Shown here: one piece after another, positions 6,189-40,954 of the stretch | How positions within the stretch are numbered: position 1 is the stretch's first letter | Layout: each line of letters begins with the position of its first letter | IMG/VR virus record: IMGVR_UViG_3300032272_000003 | Span: 1 to 64,000 of that record | Origin: a virus | DNA: 64,000 bases | Direction: 5' to 3' (one strand) | Made by a program: the position numbers and the translations under genes | Notes under the pieces: model-generated | What the model was told of the DNA's origin: nothing | The model's input: the letters and a program-made list of their open reading frames with translations, nothing else | Databases searched by the model: none

Positions 6189-6930
6189 GCGTTTTGTTTA
6201 GCTTTTCAAAACTTTCTGCTCTTTCTGCCAGTACATCATTTAATTATTCTTGCAACTGGATAGCATCAACAGCGATTGAGACGACCGTGGTGCCGGTATT
6301 GACCTGAATGGTTACACTGCCCTTATGAGTCAGATAACCGTCGTCATAGACCGTCAGAGTGTCCTCTAGGCCAAAGCCGAACAACTGGAATAGCTTACTC
6401 TTCAGACTCATGCTTCAGATTCTCCTGTATTTCAATGGCGGACAATTCCGCGTCTCTAACAACCCCCGCCCAGAATACCGTGTGGTACTTAAAGCGAACA
6501 CACGGCTGGCAAGGTCTGGCAATCCGTTAGGTTAGCAACACGCTTACGCCACTTATTGAACTTTTTAGATTCTGCCCTGTTCACGCTTCAGACTCCAGTA
6601 AACCAGCATACATAATAAAGACATTCCGCAATGCACCGATTTTAGCAACATCCGTGCCACTTTGGTCTCTGATAGTACACTCAATCCCACGGTTTTGGGC
6701 GACTAGAATGGCGTCCTTAAGCTTGTCAAACGTAGTCTGGGCTGTATAGTTCAAGTTTGGAAAGAAGAGCGAATACATAATTTTAATCCTCGTCAGTGTC
6801 AAGTTCAAAAGTATGGCCATGACCATACACGCATTCACCGTACCATGCTGTTTCTGGTGTGTCGGTTGTCTGTTCAACTGGACAACCACACACGGGGCAT
6901 TCTGGACGGCTACCGATATAAGTAAAGATA

Positions 6931-7799: not shown

Positions 7800-8207
7800 T
7801 TAGAGCAAAGATTCCAGCTTTAAAATGTGCATTTTGTTGTGGTTAATTTCAGAGGCCCGACGTTCGTTTGTCGCCTTGCGTGTTCTTGGTTTGGCTATGT
7901 CACGGGCCAGCTGATCGTTATCAGAATGCAAGCTTCTAATAGCCGTTTTTATCGCGGTTTCGGTATAGTCCAAAGATTCGCGGGTATTGACTTGCACCAT
8001 CTCAGGGTAGCCAGCAAGGCGACGGGCCTCGCTTTGATGCTTTGATGTGGAATTAGAATAAGAGTAGGCATTAAACAAAATCACGCCTTTATACTCTTTC
8101 ATAAACTGCCAGTGACCATAAGAACGCGCCTCGTGTGTTTCGGGGTTAAAAGTGAAACTGCCAGTGCTGTTTTCATATTGTCCGCGACGCTTGATAAATT
8201 TAGCCAT
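7800..8207 (-). CDS. conserved phage early hypothetical protein
   Basis: SYGHW and YSNSTSKHQ motifs; GAGGA RBS with stem-loop leader. Confidence 0.7.
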   Translation of the reverse strand: MAKFIKRRGQYENSTGSFTFNPETHEARSYGHWQFMKEYKGVILFNAYSYSNSTSKHQSEARRLAGYPEMVQVNTRESLDYTETAIKTAIRSLHSDNDQLARDIAKPRTRKATNERRASEINHNKMHILKLESLL

Positions 8208-8300
8208 TTTTATATCCTCGTTTTTGTGTGTGTGTGGGCTTTATTGCCCTAGTGTGTTACTTAAGTTATCGGTATTCTATTCTAAAACTTTAGCCTTATT

Positions 8301-8477
8301 TTATTGAGGCACTACGACTAGAGCTATTCGACCGTCTCTAGTTTCATACGAGCTTGTGGCCCCTATAGTCTTTGCAACCCTGTTAATGCCGAACCTGTCC
8401 GCCTTTTTTGGGAAGATAAGCACTGTAGCACCATCTTCTCTTTCAAATACTCTGACATTATTATCAATCACCCTCAT
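8301..8477 (-). CDS. small hypothetical protein (58 aa, not in ORF track)
   Basis: MRVIDNNVRVFEREDG...; GAGGAG RBS (GTG start also possible); promoter at 8504-8533. Confidence 0.6.
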   Translation of the reverse strand: MRVIDNNVRVFEREDGATVLIFPKKADRFGINRVAKTIGATSSYETRDGRIALVVVPQ

Positions 8478-8503
8478 CTCCTCTTTGTTGTTAACTTAAA
8501 AAC

Positions 8504-8533
8504 AGATTAACCCGGAAAGGTGTAGGCCGTCAA
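8504..8533 (-). promoter_or_regulatory. sigma70-type promoter heading the early region
   Basis: TTGACG-18-TAATCT. Confidence 0.6.
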
Positions 8534-8580
8534 CTAAAAGTTTTATCAATAGAAACAACGACTTAGAGATGATAGTTTGC

Positions 8581-8593
8581 TAAGTGATTGATT
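8581..8593 (-). promoter_or_regulatory. IHF binding site
   Basis: AATCAATCACTTA, perfect WATCAANNNNTTR. Confidence 0.65.
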
Positions 8594-8773
8594 TTACTAC
8601 AGAATTTATTTTGAAATAGTTTTGGGCTGGTTTCGCTCTATATAGAGCGGGAAACGTGAACGGGTAACACTGGCCAGAATGGCAGACAAGCCCACCACGG
8701 GCCGATTTTTGCTATGGGATACCATGACAAGGCACGGCACGATAAAACAGCACACGGGCAAAATGGCTATAAC

Positions 8774-8894
8774 TGGCACAAATTGTGCAAGCCCAAAAAC
8801 CATGCCAACAAACCTGGCCCCAAACTTGCACAGCATAACCCGTGCCAAGTGTCTTAGCATAAACCGTGCCAAAAAAGTTGGCACATTTATTGCA
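8774..8894. promoter_or_regulatory. array of five sigma54 (RpoN) -24/-12 boxes
   Basis: +8774 TGGCACAAATTGTGCA; +8815 TGGCCCCAAACTTGCA; -8847 TGGCACGGGTTATGCT; -8871 TGGCACGGTTTATGCT; +8879 TGGCACATTTATTGCA; all GG-N10-GC. Confidence 0.75.
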
Positions 8895-8902
8895 TACGCT
8901 GC

Positions 8903-8915
8903 TAAGTCATTGATT
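8903..8915 (-). promoter_or_regulatory. IHF binding site
   Basis: AATCAATGACTTA, perfect consensus. Confidence 0.7.
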
Positions 8916-8921
8916 TATTTA

Positions 8922-8978
8922 TGCACCAAAATGGCGCATTTAATGCACCAAAATAATTTATTGCACCAAAATAGTGCA
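8922..8978. promoter_or_regulatory. NtrC-type enhancer sites
   Basis: TGCACCAAAATGGCGCA (8922-8938), half-site TGCACCAAAAT (8944), TGCACCAAAATAGTGCA (8962-8978); consensus TGCACC-N5-GGTGCA. Confidence 0.7.
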
Positions 8979-9000
8979 ATAAAATTAATAAAAGAATAGT

Positions 9001-9028
9001 AAAATAACCCCTATAGGGGGGTTATTTT
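9001..9028. terminator. bidirectional terminator-like hairpin
   Basis: AAAATAACCCC-TATAGG-GGGGTTATTTT. Confidence 0.7.
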
Positions 9029-9058
9029 AAACTTAAATTTATAAATTTAAGTTACTTA

Positions 9059-9382
9059 TTAATGACTTACATATCCCCGTGCGTACTTCTTCTGGCGTAA
9101 CGAAGTGACGGGTGCTGTGTCTGGGAGAGGAACCTCGCAGAATCCTTTGATGCTGTTAGGACAGTATGATCCTGCCTCTACTGCCTTGTGGTTGAAGTGA
9201 CGACGAACGACGTATCCGACGAGCACAGCTTTCAACGTTAAAGCGATTGTTAACCCAAAGCTTTCTGCTAGGGAAATGGATATTCCAAACCAAGGGGCGA
9301 CGGCAAATATGGCCATTGTCAATAGGATGTTGCCGACTGTAATCAAGCCAGCTTCTATTAGTGATTCTCGTTTTGTTTGCAT
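9059..9382 (-). CDS. small membrane protein
   Basis: Two TM helices; AAGGAG RBS; TATAAATA at 9430-9437. Confidence 0.7.
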   Translation of the reverse strand: MQTKRESLIEAGLITVGNILLTMAIFAVAPWFGISISLAESFGLTIALTLKAVLVGYVVRRHFNHKAVEAGSYCPNSIKGFCEVPLPDTAPVTSLRQKKYARGYVSH

Positions 9383-10816
9383 TTCAAATCTCCTTAATGT
9401 ACAGCCTGAAAATATCCAGGCTGTACATTTATTTATAACTACATAATATCATATTGACGGAATTGTCGTAAGATAGCCCCAGATAGCCACAGGTACTTCA
9501 TCCGGGGAGTTCTTCAATTTTGGATACCATGGCACCCATATCAAAAGAACTCCCTTCAGAATGGCTCCTGTTAGCCTCTGTACCAAGATACTATTGCGAT
9601 AGAATAGATGAACTGGTAAAAGGTATTGATCGGCAGACCGAGATATGCAGCGGCCATGGTGCTAAATGTTATTGCAACTACGTCGGTACCGAAGTCGATA
9701 TCATCGATTGATTTACGTCGGATCATGTCATTCTCCTGTTATGTATGATTGTAATAGTAACACATAATGATACTAATTACTACTCCATTAGTTTGATTAT
9801 CTTTACGATACGTTTACCTTTCCGGGTCAGTATGATGTGCTGACCCCGGTTGGCAGACATTGTACCACCCTCACTGAAATTAATCGAAGCACTATCAGCA
9901 CTATCATTCTTAATGACTCCATTCTTAATTAGAGCCAATCTAATATGATTTTTATATTGTGGTACTGGGGACGAATAATCCAGCACCGAACGTGTATATT
10001 CCATTGACATCTTGAAAGTGCTGAGCTTACCCTTCTCATCCATTTCCAGCAGCAGAAACTTACTATCCATACTGAGCTTGGCGTAGATATTTAGGTCTCT
10101 ACCGAACTGCCATGAACGATAGAGACCTTTGAGTTTGCTAAAACCGAACATCATACACTTCGAGTGTATAATCACCCTTAGCAGTGAACTCATGTACCCC
10201 GGCACGGCAAGCAATGCCAATGTTGACTGCTACTGTAGGGGTATCTTCAGCCAGTTCCAGTACATTCTTATGGGTAAGCTTCAGAGCCTGGGCAGCTCCA
10301 CGAACGTTGGGAAGCTGTGACATGTCCATCCGTGTGTCCACATAATTAACCAGCTTGGTCTGTAAGTCAAGGTACTGTTCGATAGGTATTTTTTGTAAGT
10401 CCATAGTGATCTCCTGTTAAAGTAATGTCCGGTCAAATGTCCGTTACATTTTTAGTGCTGTGTTGATAGCATCAACGTCGAACTCATCACAGTGTAGCAT
10501 GTATTCAAGTACAGGTACAGGATCGTCGATGCCGTGCATCGCATAGAGTTGATCATCATACACCAACATCTGGGCTATATAAAAAGTATTTTCTTCCGTA
10601 TCAGAACTATAATTGATGTAATGAAATCCGTTCTCTTTTATTCTACATTCATCAATCGCAATCGTGCAACAAACTTGTTCCAAGGAATACTTCACACCAC
10701 TTGGTGATTTGAATTCATAAAACATGATGCACCTATCAGTTAACATCTTTATCAGCATGTCGGTGGTCTGATCTAACTTGAATATGCCCATGGGGATATT
10801 ATTTAATGGTTTTGGG

Positions 10817-29030: not shown

Positions 29031-32000
29031 TTATCCACATTTACTTGATCCACAGTTCTGGCACTTAAAGCAACCTTCACTATAAATCACCTGTCCTCCA
29101 CATTCGCCACAGCTTTCGCCTTCGACCTTTTCACCATCTTTGATGAACTGTGAGAGGAACTTCTTGATCTGGAACAGGAAGGTACCAACAAAGATATCTA
29201 ACGTGTCCAGTCTCCTTACGATATTCTTGATCAAAACACCGTGCCTCAGTAGAAGAGATATTGCTCTACAAATCTTATCAGAGTTGTTGTCGCCTGATAT
29301 CTTCTTCTTAACATTGTCTACATGTTCTTGTTTGATACACTTCTCTACTGCAAGTTCCAATAATCCGTCGATTGCATTCGAGGTCTGAACTGTAGGTTCT
29401 TTCGCATTGGTCTTAACGAACAAAGCGAACGGTCTGTTAAAGTTACCATCATGTGCCACCATTGTCAAGTACCATTTCTTACCTTCAGCCTTTATTACCT
29501 TAACCCTGGCGTCGGCATCGTTTGGAAGTTTGACATCATCAAGGATGATCTCTTCCTCAGTATGCACATCTTCCTTCTCGGCCAACACAGTCGCCATGGT
29601 ACCAGCACGGTACGTGGTGATGCCTTTGATGTAACCAGTATCATAGGCGTCCGTGTAGATTTTACAGAAGTCATCATATGGGTAATCGTTCGGGACGTTC
29701 ACAGTCTTACTGATAGCACTGTCAACATATTTGGCAAAGCCCTTGAGATCACTCACATGTTCTTCAACCGTCAGGTTCATAGTTGTCTTCGCCCATTCAG
29801 CGTTAACATCCCACTCACCACGAGCTTTCATTGCACGTACACCATAATCCTCACATAAGACTTCCCTAGTCAGGCCACGGTTCTTATCGATCTTGTAGAC
29901 CACTTCATTATATTCACCTTCGTTATACACACCACGTAGGATTTCTTCATCACCCTCTTTGGCAAACTTGAACAGCTCGGTCTCTTCCCACTCACCTTCG
30001 AACCACTTAGGACAAACATCGGCGATTTCATCGGGCATTGTATTCACGATCACAGTACGAATGTACTCTGGCATGAAGACTGGTTCGATACCACCAGATA
30101 CGACGTTGGCGAAGATACTGGTATTTCCGGTAGGTTGGACAGACATAAGTGACGAGTTACGTATGCCTGTGGTGCTGAGCTTTTGCATGTAGTCTTTGCT
30201 CAGCCCTAACTTCTTAACAAACGGGGCGTCAGCGTGAGCCTGTGGATCACAGAGGGGGAATTTACCCTTCTCTATGGCCAGGTCGATGCTCGCCTCGTAG
30301 GTAGCGATGGACATTGTTTTCATCAGCTTCTCACGAATCTCAGCGGCACGTTCTGAAGCAAATGGAACCTTCAGCATATACAGGGCAGATGCCCATCCGA
30401 GAATACCACAACCGATACGACGCTTATTGAGCATTGTCTCTTTGTAGATTGGCAACGGTGCACCAGATGTGCTTAGAACGTTATCCAAGAAACGAACCAT
30501 GATCTTTGCATACTTCTTGATGGCATTGTAATTCAGATCAGTGAATGTCTTGTTTATGAACTGGGTGATGTTCAGACTGGCCAAACAACAAACGTTGCCT
30601 GGGCTGAGAGTTTGTTCACCGCAATTATGTGCCACTATATTATTAGCAACCAGATTGTGGGTATCCTCTACTGTAATATCGTATACATCAGTTTTTGGGC
30701 CTTCTGATATTGATACAATACGAACATACTGGTTCTTTAGGTTTGTTCGTAGATGATCTGGCATTGGAACAATCGTCTTCTTTCCCTTATTACTACCTAT
30801 ACCACTAATGAATCTCCCAGAAGCCTCACATTGCTCTTGGTGATCATTATCACAACCATATCTAGTCAACGTCGCATGAGAATATGCAGCTCCTCTACGA
30901 GTGCGGCACAGATGAACTAGATTATCACCTACTGATAAATCCTTTGCTTCAACATACCCAACCCCTGTAACATATATTTTATGATTTGGGGTGACTGTCA
31001 ATTGTGATCCAGTATTGGTGGTGATAGTTAGCGTTTCTGTATTGGTTCTTGTTATCCAAGATGCAGATGCACGTTTCATAACTAATGAGCCATCAGAGTC
31101 CATAGAATATACGTGTGTGGGTGCTGTGATATCCTTAATCATCACTGGCCCATCACAGGTTTCTATAACTGTTTCTGGATGAAAGCATGGATTGGTTGCA
31201 AAGATTTTCTCAAGGTAGTTTAAAGGATTGAAATAATTAGCCCTGTCGAGGAACAACACACCAGGCTCGGCACGATTGTATGTACCCTGCATGATCTTAT
31301 CCCACAACTCTTTGGCTGATATAGTGTCATAGACGACCGTTGGATAACCCTTCGATTGCCACAACGCCATGTCCCCGTTCCACTCGGCCTTATATGCTTC
31401 GAACTTTGTGTTCGGGAAGATCAGCTCCCATTGTTCGTCATTCTTTACCGCAGCCATAAAGTCATCAGTACAGTTGACCGATATGTTGAACTTGGTTAGA
31501 CGACCAGCCTGTTGCTTGGCGGTGATGAACTCTAAGATGTCTGGATGCCATACATCCATCACACCCATCATGGCACCTTTGCGAATCTTACCCTTAGCCT
31601 TCTTGTTCTTCGATTTCTTCCCAGAACCGGCAGTGATGATGTCTGAAGCTTTATCGAATAGCTCCATATACTTCACGGCTCCGGGCGACTCAACGCCGAT
31701 ACCATGTATGAATGATCCACGGGGGCGGATATAGCTGAAGTTCTCACCCCACCCACCTTCTGACTTGAGGGTTAAGGATTGTGATAGTAGATGTGCATAG
31801 ATGCCTTCAATTGAATCAATATCGTAATCACCACGAGGGCCAACAAAGCATTGACCCGTCAATATACCATAACCAATCACCATAGTGTGTGTCTCTGGTT
31901 CAACACAACAAAAAACTTCTTCTATACGATTAGTAGGCTCTACTGCTACAACCTTTATGGTTTGGTTCATCTTGGGGACTGGAGAAGCAGCCATCTTATC

Positions 32001-33065
32001 AATATGAGATTTTTTCAATATCAATCTAGGGTCGCCGTGGAACTGTTTCTTTATGAATGTGAGTTTCCATAATTCTGCCTTTCCGCCAGTGAATGGATTA
32101 TGTGATCTCTCTTTTCTCAACGAACATGTAGCTATACCAACATTAGCCGCCAATAATCGAATTGATTGTAAAGCATCCTTATCAGCACAATGTAATACAA
32201 CGCTACCACGAGAGTCTACACATCCGTCTGCTGATATATGTCCTGCTATAAATCCCCGCATGTAGCTAACATTTTGATTCGTTGGTAACTGTTTGTAATG
32301 TTGTGGGAGTCCACGAACAGTATAAACACCCATAGGATCATTTTTATATTGACTTGTTCTGAAATAATCAAAATAATCAACTACGAGATGTCTACTATCA
32401 TCGAATTGATTTAACACACAAAATATCTCGTCTTTATGATCCTTATATAATGAACCATCACCATAACATATACCATGCTTTATACCTTCCAAGTATGATT
32501 CATCATCATACTCTATATCATTAGACCATCCAAAGGGAATGTTACAATTTACCAAATGTTTAGTAGTGACACGCTCATATCCTCCTCTAGGTTTAGTAAC
32601 AACCCATTCATGTCCTTCAGTGGCTTCTAGGGTATCTCCATTTGAGAGTAATACCCTAAACAGCGGTTGTTGGCCATATGAATGCCATTCGGCTGGTCGA
32701 TACTTATTATCAATACCTAATGTATTGACTGTTTTACCTACCAATGTTCTAGCAGGAAACACCCCTTTATCAGTGTGTACTTTGGTGTCGCCCTGAATAC
32801 AGTTGATGAATGTAGTGCCTCCCCACTCGGTACCGGCATTAGAATAGATTCGGCCACCGGCTGTGCCTTTAAATTCTGTTAGTAGATCATAAAACTGGTC
32901 TTCCCAGTGCTGTCTTACTTCTTCCTTTTCGCATTGAGCCATTGCACTAGCGACACGACGGAACGTTGTATCAACGTGATCATCGTTATGGTCCCTGTAC
33001 GTACTGCTCCAAACTTCTTCTGGGAAGAGGTCTTGGAACTGGGTGTCGTGTTTATCTGTTGGCAT
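29031..33065 (-). CDS. nrdJ: class II (B12-dependent) ribonucleotide reductase with two inteins
   Basis: GGRIYSNAG, NC, AEPG, TNPCGEQ (after splicing), PTGNTS, C-terminal TSCPD-like domain and CxxC..CxxC..KC tail; no nrdB nearby. Confidence 0.88.
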   Translation of the reverse strand: MPTDKHDTQFQDLFPEEVWSSTYRDHNDDHVDTTFRRVASAMAQCEKEEVRQHWEDQFYDLLTEFKGTAGGRIYSNAGTEWGGTTFINCIQGDTKVHTDKGVFPARTLVGKTVNTLGIDNKYRPAEWHSYGQQPLFRVLLSNGDTLEATEGHEWVVTKPRGGYERVTTKHLVNCNIPFGWSNDIEYDDESYLEGIKHGICYGDGSLYKDHKDEIFCVLNQFDDSRHLVVDYFDYFRTSQYKNDPMGVYTVRGLPQHYKQLPTNQNVSYMRGFIAGHISADGCVDSRGSVVLHCADKDALQSIRLLAANVGIATCSLRKERSHNPFTGGKAELWKLTFIKKQFHGDPRLILKKSHIDKMAASPVPKMNQTIKVVAVEPTNRIEEVFCCVEPETHTMVIGYGILTGQCFVGPRGDYDIDSIEGIYAHLLSQSLTLKSEGGWGENFSYIRPRGSFIHGIGVESPGAVKYMELFDKASDIITAGSGKKSKNKKAKGKIRKGAMMGVMDVWHPDILEFITAKQQAGRLTKFNISVNCTDDFMAAVKNDEQWELIFPNTKFEAYKAEWNGDMALWQSKGYPTVVYDTISAKELWDKIMQGTYNRAEPGVLFLDRANYFNPLNYLEKIFATNPCFHPETVIETCDGPVMIKDITAPTHVYSMDSDGSLVMKRASASWITRTNTETLTITTNTGSQLTVTPNHKIYVTGVGYVEAKDLSVGDNLVHLCRTRRGAAYSHATLTRYGCDNDHQEQCEASGRFISGIGSNKGKKTIVPMPDHLRTNLKNQYVRIVSISEGPKTDVYDITVEDTHNLVANNIVAHNCGEQTLSPGNVCCLASLNITQFINKTFTDLNYNAIKKYAKIMVRFLDNVLSTSGAPLPIYKETMLNKRRIGCGILGWASALYMLKVPFASERAAEIREKLMKTMSIATYEASIDLAIEKGKFPLCDPQAHADAPFVKKLGLSKDYMQKLSTTGIRNSSLMSVQPTGNTSIFANVVSGGIEPVFMPEYIRTVIVNTMPDEIADVCPKWFEGEWEETELFKFAKEGDEEILRGVYNEGEYNEVVYKIDKNRGLTREVLCEDYGVRAMKARGEWDVNAEWAKTTMNLTVEEHVSDLKGFAKYVDSAISKTVNVPNDYPYDDFCKIYTDAYDTGYIKGITTYRAGTMATVLAEKEDVHTEEEIILDDVKLPNDADARVKVIKAEGKKWYLTMVAHDGNFNRPFALFVKTNAKEPTVQTSNAIDGLLELAVEKCIKQEHVDNVKKKISGDNNSDKICRAISLLLRHGVLIKNIVRRLDTLDIFVGTFLFQIKKFLSQFIKDGEKVEGESCGECGGQVIYSEGCFKCQNCGSSKCG
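30624..31187 (-). mobile_element. intein 2, mini-intein (188 aa)
   Basis: Starts CFHPET; VTPNHK; VYDITV...HN followed by C; splits NP|CGE. Confidence 0.92.
31851..32801 (-). mobile_element. intein 1 with LAGLIDADG endonuclease (317 aa)
   Basis: Starts CIQGDT; block B ATEGHEW; GICYGDG and GHISADG; ends TGQ before Cys; AT-richer than flanks. Confidence 0.9.
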
Positions 33066-39736: not shown

Positions 39737-40819
39737 TTAGTCAGGGATGTATTTGATCAGTTCTGCGAAGATTTTCTTCGACTTGCTGATGAGCTTCATG
39801 AAAACTTCACGCTTCGTAGAGTTCTTGATGCTCTTGAACAACAGAATCTTGAAGTCATCACCGAGCTGGCTAACCAGACCACCATCGTCCAACAGCACTT
39901 TCATGCGAGCATCGTTGTCGTAGTTATCGATCATGCAAAAGATCAGGCTCGATACTACCGCAAATGTGATACCGATATCATCGGTAGGAATCTGGTATTC
40001 CATTTCACCATCCATGACCTTGTTGAAGTCAGGCAACTTGCTGTAGTACTTGCGGAAAACATCGAAGTCCATAGTGGTACCTTGGCCAACACAGCCAGAC
40101 AGGGCAATGTTCAGGCTTTCTTCGTCATAACCGACATTCATCAGGTAAGACGCTTGTTCCCATGAGCGGGGTGATGCAAACGCCATGTCGTTCTTATATG
40201 GATCGAAGCGATACAGGGCATCTTTACGAAAGTTCAAGAATCCAATGATCTGTTCGTTCAGACCACGACTGATTGCATAAGCAGTCCAGTCATCCACGTT
40301 GGCAGTAATGAATAAGTGCATACCGAAGCGATTGGCCAGGGCAGGTGCAACTTCTTTGGCACCTGTCTTATCAGACTTCAGGTTACCAGCAGCAACGATC
40401 TTCCAACCTGGTGGCAGTTTGCGACCGTTTTGGATGGTGCGATCCAGTACCAGGCGGTAAGCGGCGTGTTGAGTGCTGACGTTAGCATTAGACAGCTCAT
40501 CAAGGAAGATGATGCCCTTACTATCTGGGTCTTCAGGAAACCATGATGGTGTAGAGAATCGCATTTCACCAGACTCTTGCACTACATAAGGAATACCACC
40601 GATGTCTGATGGCTCCAACATCGCCAAGCGAAGGTCAACCATACCAAGGCTATGCTCTTCACAGATTTGTGCAACAAGTGATGACTTACCGATGCCGGGT
40701 GATGAATGAAGGTAGATGGGTGCATGACTGTTCTCATCTGCCAAGATCGGGGCGATCAACTTCGATGCATTTCGAAGTGTTACCGTAATTTCGTTTGAAC
40801 CTGCTGCTTGCTTTGACAT
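39737..40819 (-). CDS. MoxR-like AAA+ ATPase
   Basis: SPGIGKS, FLDEL, AAGN, ALANRF; start reassigned to MSKQ behind AGGAG. Confidence 0.88.
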   Translation of the reverse strand: MSKQAAGSNEITVTLRNASKLIAPILADENSHAPIYLHSSPGIGKSSLVAQICEEHSLGMVDLRLAMLEPSDIGGIPYVVQESGEMRFSTPSWFPEDPDSKGIIFLDELSNANVSTQHAAYRLVLDRTIQNGRKLPPGWKIVAAGNLKSDKTGAKEVAPALANRFGMHLFITANVDDWTAYAISRGLNEQIIGFLNFRKDALYRFDPYKNDMAFASPRSWEQASYLMNVGYDEESLNIALSGCVGQGTTMDFDVFRKYYSKLPDFNKVMDGEMEYQIPTDDIGITFAVVSSLIFCMIDNYDNDARMKVLLDDGGLVSQLGDDFKILLFKSIKNSTKREVFMKLISKSKKIFAELIKYIPD

Positions 40820-40850
40820 CTTCGTCTCCTTGTTGTTGAAGTGTGTAGCT

Positions 40851-40879
40851 ATTTTACCCCGGATTGGGTAGGGAGTCAA
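40851..40879 (-). promoter_or_regulatory. sigma70-type promoter
   Basis: TTGACT-17-TAAAAT. Confidence 0.75.
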
Positions 40880-40954
40880 CCCCATTTTACAATTATTTGA
40901 ACATTAAGTTGAGGTTTTCTGTCTCGGCTCATGTTCTCCTGTGAGTGAAATTAC

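Follow-up and report, generated by a model that had tools for sequence, protein, structure and literature searches.

Phage transcription is usually framed in terms of sigma-70 takeover, phage sigma factors, or phage polymerases, and a literature search turned up no paper on phage genomes that carry sigma-54 or NtrC promoters. Pectobacterium phage Q19 encodes a putative sigma-54-like protein (PMC7693777), a T4-like phage encodes Htm, an AAA+ protein that resembles bacterial enhancer-binding proteins and is without the sigma-54 contact motif (bioRxiv 10.64898/2026.10.06.757011), and T4-like cyanophages carry NtcA-dependent promoters that are thought to make phage expression responsive to nitrogen stress in the host (Sullivan et al. 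2010, PMC3037559). As to the bacterial machinery, the sigma-54 holoenzyme binds promoters stably without activation (PMC4591121), and looping assisted by integration host factor (IHF) is documented for glnHp2, nifH, Pu, and pspA, the IHF bend being needed for looping in promoters of the glnHp2 type (PMC2709558). Here we examine positions 8774 to 8978 of the window, that is, the first 64 kb of the 147,679-bp IMG/VR virus contig IMGVR_UViG_3300032272_000003 (43% G+C), where five sigma-54-type promoter boxes stand beside an IHF site and two NtrC-type dyads. Judged on its sequence, this island is probably a real enhancer-dependent sigma-54 control region, run by a lytic T4-like phage with the proteins of its host. 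It lies inside a 581-bp gap (8478 to 9058) within a long series of small minus-strand genes, the genes on both sides of the gap being on the same strand.

Boxes were defined by at most one mismatch to TGGCAC-N5-TTGCW, an extended consensus was scored over 12 positions, and transcription starts were predicted 12 nucleotides (nt) after the C of the -12 GC. Five such boxes occur within 121 bp, and a weaker site stands to their left:

8698 to 8713, plus strand: weak GG-N10-GC box, CGGGCCGATTTTTGCT, 9 of 12 consensus positions
8774 to 8789, plus strand: S1, TGGCACAAATTGTGCA, one mismatch, predicted start ~8800, rightward
8815 to 8830, plus strand: S2, TGGCCCCAAACTTGCA, one mismatch, predicted start ~8841, rightward, face to face with P2
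8847 to 8832, minus strand: P2, TGGCACGGGTTATGCT, 11 of 12 positions of the extended consensus, predicted start ~8821, leftward
8871 to 8856, minus strand: P1, TGGCACGGTTTATGCT, predicted start ~8845, leftward
8879 to 8894, plus strand: S3, TGGCACATTTATTGCA, a perfect TGGCAC-N5-TTGCW, predicted start ~8905, rightward

The five boxes of the original prediction, in the order + + - - +, are thus all present within one mismatch, with GG and GC exactly 10 nt apart in the TGGCAC-N5-TTGCW frame and with extended-consensus scores of 10 to 11 out of 12. The weaker sixth box that had been added to them exists but does not rise above background, 27 sites in the contig having an equal score, and alone it is not significant. 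P1 and P2 form a tandem 17-nt repeat, 24 bp apart, and S3 is back to back with P1, with 7 bp between the two.

Boxes with at most one mismatch number 10 in the whole 147.7-kb contig, five in the island and the remaining five all within long genes; likewise, GG-N10-GC sites number 608, among which 12 reach at least 10 of the 12 positions of the extended consensus, and five of these 12 belong to the island. When the contig was simulated 300 times with a first-order Markov model, no 150-bp stretch contained more than two boxes, against the five observed, and the Poisson probability of the cluster for one 150-bp window is ~1.6e-14. Elsewhere in the window, at 6644 to 6659 on the minus strand, is the best sigma-54 box of the contig (TGGCACGGATGTTGCT, 12 of 12), which lies inside a probable gene of 65 amino acids (aa) (6581 to 6778, minus strand); ~0.14 perfect matches are expected by chance, and the box may be an accidental or intragenic site.

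To the right of the boxes lie the elements that would complete an enhancer-dependent promoter:

8915 to 8903, minus strand: IHF consensus site, AATCAATGACTTA, inside a 17-mer at 8900 to 8916, between the dyads and the boxes
8922 to 8938: NtrC-type dyad 1, TGCACCAAAATGGCGCA, 13 of 14 consensus positions
8944 to 8954: lone NtrC half-site between the dyads, TGCACCAAAAT
8962 to 8978: NtrC-type dyad 2, TGCACCAAAATAGTGCA, 13 of 14 consensus positions, with the GCAnnA...TnnTGC core kept
9000 to 9029: strong bidirectional intrinsic terminator, with a 13-bp stem in the fold of 8905 to 9035

The original prediction had described a perfect IHF consensus and two near-perfect 17-bp NtrC palindromes with a half-site between them, and each of these is found. 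The published NtrC consensus is TGCACCAnnnTGGTGCA (PMC8743547), and the two 17-bp dyads of this form lie upstream of the minus-strand boxes, the distances between dyads and boxes ranging from 28 to 84 bp. Dyads with at most one mismatch to TGCACC-N5-GGTGCA occur twice in the 64-kb window, against 0.09 expected, and nowhere else in the contig, so that the motif density behind the original prediction exceeds chance for boxes and dyads alike. The 11-mer TGCACCAAAAT has exactly three copies in the contig, all of them in the island, the middle one being the lone half-site. The IHF consensus, WATCARNNNNTTR (PMC2709558), which AATCAATGACTTA fits, has 16 occurrences in 147.7 kb, two of them in the 581-bp gap and each of these two within a 17-mer repeat. 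This 17-mer (TGCTAAGTSATTGATTT) occurs at 8578 to 8594 and at 8900 to 8916, 322 bp apart, with a perfect IHF consensus in each copy, and the second copy, at 8578 to 8594, precedes a weak sigma-70-like promoter (TTGACG at 8533 to 8528) by ~90 bp. Between dyad 1 and the IHF site is also a T4-type late-promoter motif, CATAAATA (8916 to 8923, minus strand), of which the 64-kb window has nine copies.

Along the minus strand, a DUF7220 gene ends with its stop at 9059 and is followed, in this order, by the terminator (9029 to 9000), dyad 2, the half-site, dyad 1, the IHF site, P1, P2, a leader, and genes. Relative to the predicted start of P1 (~8845), the centre of the IHF site is at -64 and the dyads are at -85 and -125, where the original prediction had put IHF at about 60 to 70 bp and NtrC at about 80 to 130 bp upstream; relative to P2 (~8821), the IHF site is at -88 and the dyads are at -109 and -149. 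Both minus-strand boxes accordingly show the claimed enhancer-IHF-promoter arrangement of the glnHp2 type, with the enhancer ~80 to 150 bp upstream and IHF in between. P1 was also said to point into the early gene block; both boxes do face it, but the first credible gene begins 345 to 370 nt beyond the predicted starts. The leader and the block are composed as follows:

8478 to 8831, minus strand: long leader, ~350 nt, between P1/P2 and the first gene
8593 to 8581, minus strand: second IHF-like site, in the leader, matching the consensus
8533 to 8528 (TTGACG) and 8509 to 8504 (TAATCT), minus strand: weak sigma-70-like promoter, in the leader, 18-nt spacing, just before the 58-aa gene
8301 to 8477, minus strand: first credible gene after P1/P2, 58 aa
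following the 58-aa gene, minus strand: genes of 135, 110, and 176 aa, with no PHROG or Pfam family

An Atlas search on the downstream genes returned hypothetical phage proteins only, and the 135-aa protein resembles other proteins of this sort. The stretch from 8200 to 9400 contains no strong sigma-70 promoter, no Rfam family scores above threshold in 8200 to 9200, and the fold of the leader is ordinary (z = -1.45).

From these motifs and their spacing we infer protein binding, control by nitrogen, and leftward transcription as the productive direction. The terminator would stop transcription arriving from the upstream gene; the two dyads and the half-site would serve as the enhancer; and the IHF site would be placed to bend the DNA. 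Sigma-54 RNA polymerase of the host would wait on the boxes as a closed complex, firing only after NtrC in its phosphorylated form has gathered on the dyads and begun to hydrolyse ATP. Transcription would then proceed from ~8845 and ~8821 leftward, via the long leader, into the small-gene block at 8477, which would gain extra expression under host nitrogen shortage. S1 to S3 might help to capture scarce sigma-54 polymerase on a single incoming genome, or they might make a short RNA of ~125 to 230 nt.

The terminator ends the upstream minus-strand gene and would also end RNA made rightward, since transcripts from S1 to S3 would cross the IHF and NtrC sites and stop there as RNAs of ~125 to 230 nt. 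An alternative, which we regard as unlikely, is that productive transcription runs rightward: S3, with assistance from S1 and S2, would drive such an RNA to the terminator (9008 to 9029), and the minus-strand boxes would be secondary. What results could be either a regulatory RNA, in which UGCACCAAAAU would be present three times, exposed or in hairpins, or a small protein translated without a leader from the ATG at 8802. It speaks for this possibility that S3 is the sole perfect intergenic box (with S1 perfect in a sister contig, as described below), that a plus-strand terminator follows directly after the boxes, and that the predicted S1 start, 8800, falls 2 nt before the ATG, which is in frame with a longer reading frame. 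The RNA from 8905 to 9035 folds far better than shuffled sequences (z = -4.9), but a strong fold is expected from the DNA palindromes and the terminator, and no Rfam family is matched. Transcription in this direction would moreover leave the NtrC sites downstream of the start, which is unusual. Just beyond the terminator, between it and the DUF7220 stop, is a perfect 24-bp AT-only palindrome (AACTTAAATTTATAAATTTAAGTT, 9030 to 9053) that is unique in the window, with no other copy at up to four mismatches.

The protein version of the rightward alternative depends on one reading frame, whose credibility also bears on whether the gap is a gap at all:

8679 to 8999, plus strand: doubtful frame, 106 aa, spanning the whole island

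Its codon-usage score is low, and a 92-aa minus-strand frame overlaps it (minus-strand frames score as noncoding). By dicodon score the frame is ambiguous, falling within the range of real small genes chiefly because of an AT-rich and gene-like second half (0.42). An exhaustive profile search recovered one homologue, also of 106 aa and 95% identical, on a 796-bp ENA contig (L090, the sister contig), and none beyond this; a match to a 793-aa protein (P0007) involves a repeat protein and was judged spurious. Between the frame and its counterpart in L090 are five amino acid changes and one silent change, which is not how a conserved protein would be expected to vary. Two codon phases are represented among the three TGCACCAAAAT repeats, the phase of S2 differs from that of S1 and S3, and a single-sequence fold of the frame is disordered over one half, followed by one long helix. 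On a 147,488-bp ENA contig with an identical DUF7220 protein and the same order of neighbours, which is probably the same phage, one gene caller omitted the frame; the phage is contained in the ENA assemblies ERZ27251186 and ERZ27251236. An open frame often extends over the sigma-54 box arrays of other phages as well, which suggests that the motif itself is poor in stop codons. Given the substitution pattern, the phase-shifted repeats, and the half-disordered fold, the 106-aa frame is probably not a gene.

The control region would have to be operated by proteins from outside the contig. No gene for sigma-54, an enhancer-binding ATPase, an NtrC/Fis-type helix-turn-helix protein, IHF/HU, AsiA, or a MotA-type protein was found on it, and the families Sigma54_activat, Sigma54_DBD, HTH_8, Bac_DNA_binding, AsiA, and MotCF likewise identified none of these players. 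The original prediction had noted the lack of a sigma factor or activator gene in the window alone; the lack extends to the contig, from which it follows that the phage would use host proteins, with the qualification that CheckV puts the completeness of the contig at only 43%, so that gene absences apply to the contig and are unproven for the whole phage. Two weak AAA+ matches were considered as activators and rejected, one being UvsX/RecA and the other a MoxR/CobS-like ATPase without a GAFTGA motif. The latter (382 aa; 39737 to 40885 of the window, minus strand), a faint match to sigma-54 activators, has no DNA-binding domain either. The motifs of the island match the enterobacterial consensus. 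The T4-like affiliation of the phage, assumed by the original prediction, is confirmed by a Gp23 major capsid gene (E = 3e-90) and a gp41-type helicase. The nearest cultured relatives are two Alishewanella phages (48.5% identity in the capsid protein and 39% in the helicase), and the next nearest all infect Proteobacteria. The contig further carries 23 tRNA genes and a ribonucleotide reductase large subunit (29031 to 33065 of the window, minus strand) whose length of 1344 aa is due to two insertions, a splicing domain of the intein type and an endonuclease domain of the LAGLIDADG family.

Conservation could be followed in the sister contig L090, which shares 98% identity with the window and was reached solely through the 106-aa frame. 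The 243 bp from 8816 to 9058, comprising the S2 core, P2, P1, S3, the IHF site, both dyads, and the terminator, are identical in the two, and every difference within the gap falls to the left of 8815. In S1, all six spacer bases are replaced (AAATTG versus GGGGGT) and the flanking TGGCAC and TGCA are kept, so that the sister box is a perfect TTGGCACGGGGGTTGCA; this change is suggestive, although not strong, evidence that function depends on the -24 and -12 elements and on the distance between them. The boxes thus combine above-chance occurrence with retention in a relative, the latter being weak in that it concerns one relative only. Two other differences of the sister lie outside the boxes. 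In the leader, a TA-rich perfect 16-bp palindrome (CGCTCTATATAGAGCG, 8634 to 8649) has a (TA)3 insertion in L090 and has lost its outer pair, and hence behaves as a variable TA repeat rather than as a fixed protein site; and in the DUF7220 gene (L090 526 to 795; window position 9071), codon 104 changes from TAT to TAG, shortening the protein by four residues.

Further relatives were sought by blastn against cultured phages, which gave no match; by scans of viral contigs with three neighbouring proteins, which gave no relatives; and by a search of 5.8 billion proteins with both flanking genes, which returned only the query protein itself or remote DUF7220 fragments. The original prediction counted on the GG-N10-GC spacing being kept in related phages. 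It is kept in the sister, but Alishewanella phage Slickus01, the closest cultured relative, is without the island, having neither a box cluster nor an NtrC dyad; the island is therefore not general to this phage group but specific to this lineage.

The 581-bp gap is the longest of the contig without a credible gene, provided that the doubtful 106-aa frame is not counted, and this would suit a function apart from sigma-54 and NtrC, namely, an iteron-type origin, a packaging or boundary region, or a set of sites for an unknown phage DNA-binding protein. The TGCACCAAAAT copies do form three direct repeats of a ~20-bp type, spaced 22 and 18 bp, G+C content drops to 25% over 8900 to 9058, and there are two IHF-like sites. 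Of the traits of an iteron-type origin, however, the gap has only an AT-rich stretch and the three direct repeats, which are short; it lacks a DnaA box and an adjoining initiator gene, and the cumulative GC skew shows no turn. Such functions would also leave five exact GG-N10-GC boxes and two dyads at 13 of 14 positions unexplained, and the combination of box and dyad recurs in unrelated phages directly before genes. We consider this group of explanations very improbable.

That recurrence emerged from a scan of IMG/VR for a cassette consisting of an NtrC dyad, 65 to 95 nt, and then TGGCAC-N6-TGCW. It matched 22 viral loci in ~13 sequence groups, compared with six loci in two groups for a control scan in which the box spacing was widened by two bases. 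In these matches, positions that the pattern leaves free follow the sigma-54 consensus, box position 12 being T in 20 of the 22; the start of an open reading frame falls within 75 nt of the box in eight groups; and of 13 other groups, two (L026 and L036) resemble the island in having an IHF consensus located between the dyad and the box. The contigs are phage-like, with small orphan genes and, in L019, L028, and L031, a terminase downstream, but they are unrelated to this T4-like phage and share no downstream gene with it. Among relatives whose neighbouring proteins are only 39 to 60% identical, the cassette is kept, the dyad and boxes forming conserved islands in DNA that otherwise aligns poorly. 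L019, L028, and L031, whose terminases are only 39% identical, have NtrC dyads and several sigma-54 boxes 1.7 to 2.8 kb upstream of the large terminase, and late or packaging genes of some phages may also be under NtrC-type control.

Box arrays recur independently of the dyads. Back-to-back boxes 0 to 30 bp apart were found at 27 viral loci, against ~0.35 expected by chance according to our own estimate, and a separation of 7 bp was found at 14 metagenome loci, of which the two examined look phage-like. At least three boxes are present at 22 of the 27 viral loci and at least five at 12. In 596 billion bases of bacterial genomes, by comparison, the same pattern yielded 54 loci, 52 of them with the pair only. 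Many viral arrays alternate strictly, the largest having 10 boxes in 194 bp and eight in 200 bp, and several lie between diverging genes; most of those outside this phage are without NtrC dyads. Unrelated viral or metagenome contigs with alternating arrays include L074 (10626 to 10819), L064 (4801 to 5001), L052, L066, L077, and L082, none of which has NtrC-type dyads. We define such multi-box arrays here, as a class not previously published, by at least three boxes within 300 bp, in both orientations, on a phage contig with no sigma-54 or activator gene of its own, and the island belongs to them. Going by their sequence distribution, bidirectional multi-box arrays look typical of phages or other mobile elements.

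The prevalence of such arrays in viral contigs and their rarity in bacteria would also suit a sink, the decoy that the original prediction had offered as the alternative to a nitrogen-responsive promoter: the array would hold on to sigma-54 holoenzyme, perhaps to NtrC as well, and yield no useful RNA, and multiplication of the genome would lower the sigma-54 responses of the host. The stable binding of unactivated holoenzyme (PMC4591121) would allow this, three of the five boxes in the island face no gene, and boxes that overlap or abut cannot all fire. Yet a sink would require neither NtrC dyads nor IHF spaced as in a promoter; arrays of several other phages occupy divergent gene junctions or immediately precede genes, as expected of promoters; titration would be negligible with one genome copy early in infection; and we found no phage decoy of this kind in the literature. 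A pure sink accordingly seems quite unlikely to us. More tentatively than for the island itself, and with doubt outweighing confidence, we suggest that dense bidirectional sigma-54 arrays might constitute an undescribed class of phage control element that captures scarce host polymerase, the present one being wired through NtrC and IHF to read the nitrogen state and to adjust the early block or a small RNA.

Several observations weigh against an enhancer-dependent control region of the leftward kind that we favour. (i) As to the boxes, the -12 TTGC of P1 and P2 begins with A instead of T; S3, the best box of the island, points away from any gene and toward the terminator, as do S1 and S2; and S2 and P2, being face to face and so close, can probably hardly be occupied simultaneously. 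(ii) In the enhancer, dyad 1 has a C where a conserved T is expected, and the dyad centres, 40 bp apart, are not separated by a whole number of helical turns. (iii) Downstream, P1 and P2 face the gene block, yet across the long distance given above, and expression of the block might need no more than the weak sigma-70-like promoter that lies closer to the gene. (iv) As to conservation, a single sister sequence at 98% identity is weak support, and the closest cultured relative, as noted, has no such island. (v) Finally, the 106-aa frame overlaps the island in its entirety.

Compared with known systems, the island is closest in plan to glnHp2 and glnAp2 of Escherichia coli, with which it shares the -24/-12 box and two NtrC dyads of the same consensus ~85 to 150 bp upstream (PMC8743547, PMC2709558); with glnHp2 it also shares the IHF site between enhancer and promoter. 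It differs from both in belonging to a lytic phage, in having no nitrogen-metabolism gene downstream and a leader of 345 to 370 nt, and in its tandem promoters, its three opposite boxes in 121 bp, and its dyad centres 40 bp apart. The arrays and cassettes of other uncultured phages (L019 to L087) resemble it in having several boxes in 100 to 300 bp, often back to back, and no activator of their own, and some of them have NtrC dyads and IHF as well; they belong to unrelated phages, however, are mostly without dyads, and in several cases occupy divergent junctions, whereas the island is flanked by genes on the same strand. Divergent sigma-54 pairs are familiar from bacteria, as in zraP/zraSR and hyc/hyp of E. 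coli, where one intergenic region contains a shared enhancer situated between well-separated promoters. Bacterial back-to-back pairs, for their part, almost always consist of two boxes (52 of 54), and the island has five. The contrast between viral and bacterial multi-box arrays is new, as is the explicit wiring of NtrC and IHF in a T4-like phage, and the phage-typical arrays hint at a design rule.

The T4-like cyanophages offer the nearest parallel in function, as they, too, combine a T4-like genome with sites for the global nitrogen regulator of the host. NtcA, however, is a CRP-family activator of sigma-70-type promoters in cyanobacteria, whereas the island combines sigma-54, an ATP-dependent enhancer-binding protein, and IHF, as in Proteobacteria; and cyanophages have 1 to 16 scattered NtcA sites per genome, whereas this contig has one dense island. 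If our reading is true, the borrowing of ATP-gated sigma-54/NtrC control would be a new way for a phage to sense host physiology and would constitute the proteobacterial counterpart of the cyanophage NtcA sites.

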